Below are positions 13,057 through 28,268 of a DNA stretch of 64,000 bases, piece after piece. The stretch comes from a virus. Lineage: Duplodnaviria; Caudoviricetes. The notes under the pieces were generated by a model. The model saw nothing but the letters and a program-made list of their open reading frames with translations. It did not search any database and had not been told where the DNA came from. Position numbers and translations under genes: made by a program. The stretch is taken from positions 1 through 64,000 of IMG/VR virus record IMGVR_UViG_3300030117_007612; one strand, given 5' to 3'. Positions within the stretch are counted from its first letter, which is position 1. Every line of letters starts with the position of its first letter.

Positions 13057-13488
13057 ATGGAACATATTTCTACACACATCTGCAAAGGTCAGAACATTGG
13101 TGTGCACGGGAATCTTTTCGGGGGAATAATGCTGTCGTGGCTTGATGAAGCCGGCGGCGCATTTGCCGGCCAATGTTGTGATACCCCTCGCATGGTAACC
13201 CTTAAGCTGTCGGAAACAGTTTTTAAAAAGCCTGTTAGGCCCGGGCATCTTATAAAAATATATGGCAAAGTTGTGAAGATGGGGAATACCACGGTTACGA
13301 TTAAGCTCGAAGCTAGGAGACACAGCGTATACAACGGCACTCAAAAATCTGTATGTGAGACTGAAATTACATATGTGCGTGTTGATGGGGACGGAGATGC
13401 TATACCACTAAGCAACAAAGTAAAAGAAAAGTTCAAAAACGATGGTAAAAAAGAAGACGACCTTTATGAGGTGTATGGTGGCGATTGA
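13057..13488 (+). CDS. acyl-CoA thioesterase, HotDog fold (YciA-like)
   Basis: NxHGNLFGGIMLSWLDEAG, VTLK...FKKPV..G, VGxT-like strand. Confidence 0.85.
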   Translation: MEHISTHICKGQNIGVHGNLFGGIMLSWLDEAGGAFAGQCCDTPRMVTLKLSETVFKKPVRPGHLIKIYGKVVKMGNTTVTIKLEARRHSVYNGTQKSVCETEITYVRVDGDGDAIPLSNKVKEKFKNDGKKEDDLYEVYGGD

Positions 13489-13612
13489 TCTATTTATAAT
13501 ATGGTTTGCTTGTGCTAGTGTGATTGCATTTACAACCAGCAATAAGCAAAATAAAGCTAAAAAAGCTTGTGAAGTTGAAAATTGTGAAGAAACAGAGGAG
13601 AATGCGGAATGA
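13475..13612 (+). CDS. small membrane peptide (45 aa); not in ORF track
   Basis: MVAIDLFIIWFACASVIAF plus charged tail; ATGA overlap with next gene. Confidence 0.45.
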   Translation: MVAIDLFIIWFACASVIAFTTSNKQNKAKKACEVENCEETEENAE

Positions 13613-13854
13613 AATATTTATTATTATTTTTACTTTCTGGGGTCGTGCATGCCAATGAACCAAAAGAAGAACCCCGTGTGGTTTACAAACAAAAAACTGA
13701 GATTGACTTTGAGGGCGTTGAGGTTTCTGGCGAATTAGTCAGGCCGCAAGGTTCGCTTGTTTTAGAGCGAAAGCGCGCACAATTTAATTCAATGATTAAG
13801 TTGCGTACTGATTTCGATGATTTGATGGAAGATTCTGTCGAGGAAATAAAATGA
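13609..13854 (+). CDS. cglF: CglF/GltF-like adventurous gliding motility protein
   Basis: Signal peptide (VHA/NE), then YKQKTEIDFEG...GELVRPQG...RK...SMIKLRTDF.D...SVEEI, matching the myxobacterial CglF pattern as recalled. Confidence 0.7.
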   Translation: MKYLLLFLLSGVVHANEPKEEPRVVYKQKTEIDFEGVEVSGELVRPQGSLVLERKRAQFNSMIKLRTDFDDLMEDSVEEIK

Positions 13855-14003
13855 GCACACCAAGAGATTTAATAAAAAGCACATGGGCAAGGTATAAAGA
13901 ATATATGTTACTAAATGGTCGCTTAGAAGACTATGTGTTATTTACAATTGCAAAACTTCTATCTTTTAGTGCAGGAATAGGAATAGGATATTATTATTTA
14001 TGA
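13851..14003 (+). CDS. small membrane protein (50 aa); not in ORF track
   Basis: ATGA overlaps both neighbours; C-terminal hydrophobic helix. Confidence 0.5.
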   Translation: MSTPRDLIKSTWARYKEYMLLNGRLEDYVLFTIAKLLSFSAGIGIGYYYL

Positions 14004-14506
14004 AACTTATAATGGAAAATTGGAACAATTATTTGCAAGAAGAAGAAAGTTTGAATGAAGGAATTGGACAAAAATTTGCCATGGCTGCGGCATTGATTGC
14101 ATCGATGGTCGGTGGTTCACCCGACGCTAATGCCGCAATACAAGTTAGCCAAGATACAATTGAAGATGCCGGCAAAGTGCCGATCGCCAACGCGGCTGGT
14201 CTTCTAACAGACACTACAGCTAGAGTTATCTACGGTGGATTATTGGCCTTAGACCCGGTAGAATTTCCGGGAGCTAAACAGGCAGCAGATATATTTGCGA
14301 AAGCTCACAAATCTAAAGATATTCAACAATTTGAAAATATGCCGCCATTGGCACAAAAAGCTTTACAAATAATAGTAACTCAAATGCATACCGCTGCAGC
14401 GTCGGGTGATCCTGAAAAAGTTAAACAAACAATAGACACATATAGAGGCTTTGAGGCATCGGCGCCGAAAGGAATGAAATTAAAGAAAAAGTTTAGAGAC
14501 AAATGA
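14000..14506 (+). CDS. MKLxxENW-leader protein with internal Sec-like signal
   Basis: MKLIMENWNNYLQE...SLNE, then KFAMAAALIASMVGGSPDANA. Confidence 0.7.
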   Translation: MKLIMENWNNYLQEEESLNEGIGQKFAMAAALIASMVGGSPDANAAIQVSQDTIEDAGKVPIANAAGLLTDTTARVIYGGLLALDPVEFPGAKQAADIFAKAHKSKDIQQFENMPPLAQKALQIIVTQMHTAAASGDPEKVKQTIDTYRGFEASAPKGMKLKKKFRDK

Positions 14507-26532: not shown

Positions 26533-26865
26533 GGGGATGATATGGATTCGACAGGGCAAAAAAGAGGAAAAGTGCAAGCAGGTTAGATACGACCATAACA
26601 GTTCAACAAACTTAGTTGCAAATAACAACTTACATTTCGAACAGCGCTTAGCCGCTTAGTAGGGAGGCCGCTCAAAGCCTTCTATCCAATTTGAGCAAAA
26701 CAACAGATAAGTTGTAAAAATCAAACCATTTATCGTTCGCGTGATGGGGGCGATATCTTATTTCCATCTATCTTTGTCAGTATGTGATAGTAAACTGACT
26801 AAGCTTGTGAATGACTACAATTGGATTTGTTTTGGACGCGGGTTCGACTCCCGCCATCTCCACCA
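26533..26865 (+). ncRNA. ssrA: tmRNA; tag ANNNLHFEQRLAA*
   Basis: 5' GGGGATG...GGATTCGACAG; 3' GGTTCGACTCCCGCCATCTCCACCA; G3-U70 pair; resume GCA 26618 after TAGTT; stop TAG 26657-26659. Confidence 0.95.
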
Positions 26866-27719: not shown

Positions 27720-28268
27720 ATGATGGTAAAGATAGCATTTTATAAGGGCGAAGGTACTTTAATTAATCGGATTGTACGCCGATGGACCAGCAGTCCATAT
27801 AGTCATGCTGAATTAGTGATGCCTGACAATAAAACATGGATTGGAATTAGTCCATTTTTAAACTCAGAAGTATCGGCCAGAAATGTTTTGAAAGATCCCA
27901 ATCTTAATTTAGAAGATTGGGATTTTCTTAATTTTGATGTAACTGACGAACAAGCTTCCATTATAATGGAGTTTTACGAGCAAACAAAAGGCAATAGATA
28001 TGATTGGATAGGCATGCTTTTATCACAGGTGGGCCCCTTCGTTATCAAACAAGAAAAGAAATGGTATTGTAGCGAATGGATAGCATATGCCTTAAGGATT
28101 GCGGGCGTGTTTGATTGGAGAACAATTAAAATTTACGATCAACACGATCTTTCGCCGGCGACTCTTTACCGCATTGCAAGAGAAGCTCAAGCTTATAATG
28201 AAAATAAGAAATTAATCGATGATAATACCAACCAACAAACTCTTCGTGGCCAATATACAAAGACTTGA
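27720..28268 (+). CDS. permuted papain-like NlpC/P60 hydrolase (YaeF/YiiX-like)
   Basis: YSHAELV ... YDWIG ... WYCSEWIA (His before Cys). Confidence 0.75.
   Translation: MMVKIAFYKGEGTLINRIVRRWTSSPYSHAELVMPDNKTWIGISPFLNSEVSARNVLKDPNLNLEDWDFLNFDVTDEQASIIMEFYEQTKGNRYDWIGMLLSQVGPFVIKQEKKWYCSEWIAYALRIAGVFDWRTIKIYDQHDLSPATLYRIAREAQAYNENKKLIDDNTNQQTLRGQYTKT

Follow-up and report, generated by a model that had tools for sequence, protein, structure and literature searches.

A GltF-family gene in a large phage genome, with its nearest cellular relatives in marine Myxococcota

The locus and its 81-residue product

The window analyzed here comprises the first 64 kb (64,000 nucleotides) of a virus record of 203,368 bp (IMG/VR IMGVR_UViG_3300030117_007612; Caudoviricetes). 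Coding in the window lies almost wholly on one strand, and a tmRNA and three tRNAs are encoded there as well; elsewhere the phage genome encodes a large terminase, a portal protein, and a fused SbcCD-like nuclease. The features relevant to this report are a set of short overlapping ORFs around a gene of the GltF/CglF family, and the tmRNA, which is not part of that unit:

13475..13612, plus strand: small single-pass membrane ORF of 45 aa with one hydrophobic helix; its stop overlaps the GltF start
13595..13600, plus strand: Shine-Dalgarno-like GAGGAG, 8 nt before the ATG, as read from the sequence
13609..13854, plus strand: GltF/CglF-family gene of 81 aa, assigned by its match to NF033764, its relatives, and dN/dS
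13609-13653, plus strand: predicted signal peptide, approximately residues 1-15; the mature protein is residues 16-81
13851..14003, plus strand: 50-aa ORF with a hydrophobic C-terminus, joined by ATGA to the GltF stop and to the gene at 14000
26533..26865, plus strand: phage tmRNA with the tag ANNNLHFEQRLAA (ARAGORN; RF00023, 114.6 bits)

The ORF at 13609..13854 was confirmed as a genuine gene. The preliminary description of this DNA had reported an exported protein of 81 residues coupled by ATGA overlaps on both sides, and the coordinates and the leader agree with it: the stop of the upstream ORF (13610-13612) overlaps the GltF start (13609-13611), and the start of the downstream ORF (13851-13853) overlaps the GltF stop (13852-13854). 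The leader consists of MK, an 11-residue hydrophobic core (YLLLFLLSGVV), and V-H-A, followed by NE. Residues 1-15 thus look like a Sec-type signal peptide, a prediction made by eye and by alignment to cellular homologs whose leaders end in A-x-A; comparable leaders were found by inspection in all 45 viral homologs and in the cellular homologs.

A search with the NCBIfam model for CglF (NF033764), which had been proposed as a check on the assignment, returned a significant match for the ORF (E 4e-15, 55.6 bits), with protein residues 15-80 aligned to profile positions 23-88 of 88; a six-frame search of the phage genome with the same model gave E 1.9e-15. CglF and GltF are one protein (PMC4488436), and we use the latter name here. 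With this match, in a virus record that carries terminase, portal, and SbcCD-like genes, the earlier claim of a CglF/GltF-like gene in a phage is borne out. The sequence pattern that had been given for CglF fared less evenly: the family resemblance stands on the profile match, whereas the exact pattern does not hold, as YKQKT misfits "Y.K.T".

It should be noted that the score of 55.6 bits lies below the equivalog cut-off of the model, which is set at 90 bits. Among the Myxococcota genomes sampled, however, the model matches 113 of 151, mostly at 40-70 bits, and only 3 of the 151 exceed 90 bits; the cut-off therefore marks the close kin of Myxococcus and not the family as a whole. Aligned with the three GltF proteins that pass it, the phage protein is 37-48% identical, ungapped, to the extreme C-terminus. 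The phage ORF is a homolog within the GltF family, and its equivalence to the GltF of Myxococcus xanthus (MXAN_4868; NF033764) is putative: the two share a small size, Sec export (predicted in the phage), and a collinear mature part. Neither Pfam nor PHROGs returned a match for the 81-residue ORF, the ESM Atlas matches were viral "hypothetical protein" clusters only, and the phage records of INPHARED, a collection that may omit near relatives, gave neither a DNA nor a tblastn match.

The upstream ORF, whose longest frame opens at 13442, has its likely start at 13475 (MVAIDLF...), and is of a type that combines an IDLFIIGFAC.S helix with an acidic tail. A mini membrane ORF with the same 4-nt overlap precedes the gene in the loci of 12 close relatives, and two more loci have one nearby elsewhere; in one search of the protein database it had only eight relatives, all of them short unnamed metagenome proteins. 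The ATGA joins continue downstream through 13851..14003 to 14000..14506, but the 50-aa ORF at 13851..14003 has a relative in only one of the fetched loci (L002), so that the support for it as a gene is weak. The GltF stop in most relatives directly overlaps the start of a gene with an MKL(L/I)xENW leader, so GltF is probably cotranscribed with genes of that kind. A spanin pair, formed by the small membrane ORF and the exported ORF, was considered and rejected, since a lipobox cysteine is missing, the membrane ORF spans just ~45 residues, and the homology to GltF is explicit. Just upstream of the unit, 13057-13488 encodes a hotdog-fold acyl-CoA thioesterase (4HBT, E 3.6e-14; YciA-like), which is missing at that position in related phage loci. 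The T4 late-promoter motif TATAAATA shows no enrichment in the window (5 found vs. 5.9 expected), and sigma-70-like sites in the window are in no excess over shuffled sequences. No RNA run with the sequence was among the sequencing runs listed.

Distribution among phages and cells

Proteins matching the phage GltF form 742 clusters (at 90% identity) in a database of 5.8 billion proteins, and a HMMER search against 1.84 billion representatives returned 555 at E<=1e-3. The best 120 of the 742 clusters are 74-85% identical and lie on contigs of up to ~200 kb, and many of these 120 come from Tara or other marine sources. A survey of related phages, which the preliminary description had suggested, recovered the gene in 45 other viral loci of IMG/VR, with identities of 48-83%, on contigs of up to 316 kb and from 33 to 57% G+C. 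In 26 of these the position of the gene is syntenic, with homologs of 10427 and 12784 upstream and of 18777, 19992, and 20326 downstream; the 19 more distant phage contigs carry it in other, unrelated contexts. The signal peptide and the conserved core are retained in every viral copy (45/45). The median dN/dS is 0.09 (53 pairs from 16 distinct orthologs), a rough value as dS is near saturation, and argues that the phage gene is under strong purifying selection.

These observations bear on the trivial explanation that the ORF is miscalled or is a passenger gene useless to the phage, for which the small size of the ORF and its place in a variable region might be cited. We consider this very improbable given the dN/dS value, the 742 clusters, the intact signal peptides, the position conserved in 26 relatives, and at least two independent captures that were retained (see below).

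Among cells, the nearest relatives are encoded by metagenome-assembled genomes (MAGs) of 3.5-4.2 Mb that belong to one order of Myxococcota. Identities to the phage protein are 71% for G525 (UBA2957), 68% for G127 (XB_MAG53), 68% for G524 (SAT32), 64% for G534, and 63% for G526; the marine MAG proteins, at 63-71% identity, fall in the same length class as the phage protein and share with it a short acidic linker after the signal peptide. In the order of G127, 53 of 61 genomes match the phage protein at E<=1e-10, and across the phylum 65 of 401 genomes match at E<=1e-14 with the phage protein as query.

The genomic setting of the cellular genes is that of a Glt-type machinery. The two cellular GltF genes that were scanned both lie just before GltG (NF033760, 345-359 bits), the GltG proteins there having an FHA domain and an AgmX/PglI C-terminal domain; one has a large TPR protein upstream, and one has CglE after GltG. 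The preliminary description had named homologs mainly in taxa without Glt as the outcome that would speak against it; instead, a GltG C-terminal domain is encoded downstream in 62 of the 68 cellular loci. The phage gene, on the other hand, is solitary: it lies outside a glt G1 cluster (gltD-gltE-gltF-gltG-gltH), its neighbors are phage ORFs, and the phage genome has no match to GltG, to the AgmX/PglI (GltG/GltJ) C-terminal domain, or to CglE at E<=1, so that genomic context gives no help on the phage side.

To cover phyla beyond the samples labeled Myxococcota and Bdellovibrionota, we used 14 control genomes and a pattern scan in which 185,579 species were represented by one genome each. The scan returned 66 loci, a set biased to one subtype as its patterns were taken from P0126-like sequences (alignment A3). 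All informative titles among the 66 name Myxococcota, Deltaproteobacteria, Oligoflexia, or Bdellovibrionota, and two oddly titled genomes (G003, "Enterobacterales", and G004, "Rickettsiales") belong to the GTDB phylum sample that also contains the Myxococcota genomes. None of the 14 control genomes match.

Several further observations were made on the cellular genes. In many Myxococcota (20 cellular loci) a second, far more divergent GltF-like gene lies ~0.6 kb from the first, for example, at G001:C11:94462-94710 and 95083-95319; these second copies form long branches in the tree described below. The GltF-like core also occurs inside long proteins (P0193, P0242, P0145, and P0214), namely VIT+VWA proteins (segment ~600-657), a VWA protein, and a DUF4140/DUF4139 protein, and in open frames of 985-1413 aa in G533, G535, G536, G537, and G540. 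It may be that the core is a portable docking peptide and tethers other envelope proteins to the Glt machine. Many Myxococcota loci also have, 5-7 kb from gltF, a gene that on our own reading of the sequence is IMP-dehydrogenase/GMP-reductase-like and that resembles the phage ORF 170722-171759; we attribute this to housekeeping coincidence and not to linkage.

Phylogeny and the host of the phage

A tree of 114 distinct cores was calculated from 62 columns, and its resolution is poor as so few columns have to resolve so many cores. It needs ~6 switches between phage and cell, at least two of which are forced by well-supported branches. With weak support (86/74), the clade of the phage under study (20 phage rows) adjoins two marine MAGs, L076 (= G127) and L077 (SAT32). 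Phages with 51-57% G+C, together with L111, form another clade, which nests with other Myxococcota MAGs with strong support (100/95). This pattern fits a repeated capture of the host gene.

The preliminary description had placed the host in the Myxococcota or the Bdellovibrionota. The first of these finds support in the nearest relatives and their glt context; the second was dropped, as none of 120 other genomes in the phylum labeled Bdellovibrionota match the phage protein or the family model, and the single match there, L111, is a phage-like contig. L111 (contig JBBAUR010000108.1, 8.9 kb), found in a "Bdellovibrionota" MAG, has dense small ORFs on one strand and a GltF-like gene, the neighbor of which is 45% identical to the phage ORF 27720-28268; it is therefore probably binned phage DNA, and could mislead surveys of hosts or taxa. 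The ORF 27720-28268 itself encodes a protein of 182 aa that belongs to no Pfam family and that, besides the 45% identical homolog on L111, has a homolog in the viral locus L035; its SHAE...WYCSEW motifs recall, in what we take from our own reading, papain-like or NlpC/P60-type peptidases.

The tmRNA offers a further clue. Four of the genomes with the nearest GltF yielded a tag (ANNNNHFAAAAVA, ANNNNHFAATAVA, ANNNKHFALAA, and ANNNDNFAAAAVA), and the start ANNNxHF is common to the phage and three of these four; among 30 other sampled Myxococcota, ANNN opens four tags, and HF is found at positions 6-7 in none. The tag peptide alone is informative, since the DNA of the phage tmRNA resembles Myxococcota tmRNAs solely in the universal 3' end. 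Cyanobacterial tags, too, start with ANN...F, and a resemblance over seven residues is suggestive only. Regarding the cellular tmRNAs themselves, those of G127, G524, and G525 score only ~80 bits on RF00023 and their tags have AVA at the end in place of LAA; of 52 tmRNAs from other genomes of the phylum, 51 score 115-203 bits and one scores 64.

The base composition counts somewhat against a Myxococcota host: the phage has 42% G+C overall and ~38% around gltF, where the gene lies among small phage ORFs, whereas the loci of the candidate hosts, in which gltF precedes GltG with a TPR protein and CglE nearby, have 52-65%. Phages of the T4 type tolerate such gaps. Taken together, we infer that the evidence points to marine myxobacteria, from one order of small-genome Myxococcota, as the hosts.

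An explanation with another host and target would have the phage infect a nonmyxobacterial cell, the peptide docking on a different TonB- or TolA-like C-terminal domain or TPR protein, such as those of the Tol-Pal or ExbBD-TonB systems of another marine phylum. It would draw on the large G+C gap, the frequency of these phages in marine plankton metagenomes, the portability of a core that is also found inside VIT-VWA and DUF4139/4140 proteins, and the derivation of Agl-Glt from Tol/Exb-type systems (PMC3169522). We nevertheless regard it as improbable: the informative titles of the 66 loci from 185,579 species stay within the Myxococcota, Deltaproteobacteria, Oligoflexia, and Bdellovibrionota, GltG lies downstream in 62 of 68 cellular loci while 0 of 14 control and 0 of 120 Bdellovibrionota-labeled genomes match, and one order of Myxococcota is indicated both by the nearest relatives and by the tmRNA tag.

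Docking on the host machine and possible roles in infection

In M. xanthus, GltF-mCherry localizes to focal-adhesion clusters, and clusters of GltD need gltF (PMC3169522). A published AlphaFold model shows M. xanthus GltF as a largely disordered protein that bridges GltC, GltD, and GltG, with strand addition to the TonB-like C-terminal domain of GltG and a groove of GltC occupied by the C-terminal helix (PMC11761067). The AlphaFold2 monomer of the phage protein is likewise predicted as an extended chain, with no strands and a helix at residues 69-80 (pTM 0.20, mean pLDDT 78); by collinear alignment, the modeled helix corresponds to the GltC-binding helix. The phage protein would thus share with M. 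xanthus GltF the conserved core and the arrangement of an extended chain and a C-terminal helix, and differs from it in its solitary gene, a much shorter N-terminal linker, and a score below the equivalog cut-off. Positions that are invariant or nearly invariant in the family (Y26, T30, F34, P46, F59, R66, F69, and S76) are all present, so that neither modeled interface looks degraded.

Co-folding of the mature phage GltF with the C-terminal domain of GltG from G127 scored 0.50, against 0.00 for the best control, a result that is weak at that score. In these runs the pLDDT of the partner was at least 52 and contact agreement was at least 89%. Of 80 solved complexes, 58 attained the mark used for a pass, as did 2 of 110 mismatched pairs. 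Scores <=0.60 were, however, given to only 7 of those 80 and to both mismatched passes, and in that range wrong passes outnumber correct ones unless the pairing was already likely before the run. Solved strand-addition complexes of the TonB-box-like kind may also have helped this pair to pass, through recall by the model. Together with the homology, the models suggest that phage GltF most likely binds the host machine in the manner of host GltF. The effects on motility, predation, or a Glt-based receptor (exclusion) that the preliminary description had put forward are hypothetical.

The M. xanthus genome encodes a paralog of GltF, NfsF, in the Nfs spore-coat machine, where it is the same kind of small linker. 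We liken the phage protein to NfsF by description only, and the cluster of the candidate hosts may be of either the Glt or the Nfs type.

The best explanation in our view, offered tentatively and at somewhat less than an even chance, is that gltF was captured from marine Myxococcota and that its product docks on GltG and GltC and supplies the linker to the host machine. The phage protein would be exported by Sec into the periplasm of the infected cell; its central strand (~TEIDFEGVEVSGELVRPQG) would pair, by strand addition, with the TonB-like C-terminal domain of host GltG, and its C-terminal helix (~DFDDLMEDSVEEIK) would occupy the TPR groove of host GltC. By replacing a linker that is probably short-lived, the phage copy would allow the host machine to keep working after host expression has been shut off. 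Phage auxiliary genes that copy a host subunit have a precedent in cyanophage psbA.

The same homology, export signal, and selection would equally be expected if the phage protein interferes with the machine. In excess, it may saturate GltG and GltC separately, or compete with host GltF, and so uncouple the motor from the outer-membrane complex; gliding would then stop, or the structure that rival phages use as a receptor would be hidden or disabled. Tip, Aqs1, and Zip are examples of phage proteins that shut down the pili of the host and so exclude rivals, and their genes, like psbA, act on a host machine during infection. As GltF is modeled as a bridge between GltC, GltD, and GltG, stoichiometry should matter (PMC11761067), and the small membrane ORF to which the gene is coupled, and which many relatives from this phage clade also have, suggests a phage-specific twist. 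However, the known exclusion proteins are usually small and novel rather than faithful copies of a host subunit, whereas the phage protein retains every conserved position of the family and is up to 71% identical to a cellular protein. We therefore see interference as possible and on balance unlikely. Supply of the linker agrees slightly better than jamming with a copy that is faithful and full-length, has been captured repeatedly, and is strongly conserved; the two readings are inseparable here because too much of a bivalent linker would in itself uncouple the proteins it joins.

A broader proposal, which we put forward as a doubtful one, is that several lineages of large, uncultured aquatic phages captured gltF independently because a Glt- or Nfs-type machine is a general point of phage control in Myxococcota, with GltF and the mini membrane protein retuning force transmission across the envelope so as to prevent superinfection, for instance, or to set the time of lysis. 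If this were true, gltF would be a marker by which abundant, hostless, T4-like marine phages could be assigned to planktonic small-genome myxobacteria.

The GltF family was already known; a copy carried by a phage is unreported in the literature searched, in which we found no report of a phage gene for the gliding-type Agl-Glt machine, and a 2026 preprint on the auxiliary genes of myxophages does not mention a phage-borne GltF. This would be the first phage gene aimed at an envelope machine of the Agl-Glt type. For the widespread, uncultured marine phages of ~100-300 kb without a cultured host, it would provide a host assignment, to one order of small-genome marine Myxococcota. The phage variants of GltF would also be natural probes of the least understood step of myxobacterial gliding, that is, of the periplasmic linker that couples the output of the GltG/GltJ motor to the outer-membrane GltC-GltABHK-CglB complex, and the presence of a phage copy suggests that this machine is kept, or retuned, during infection.
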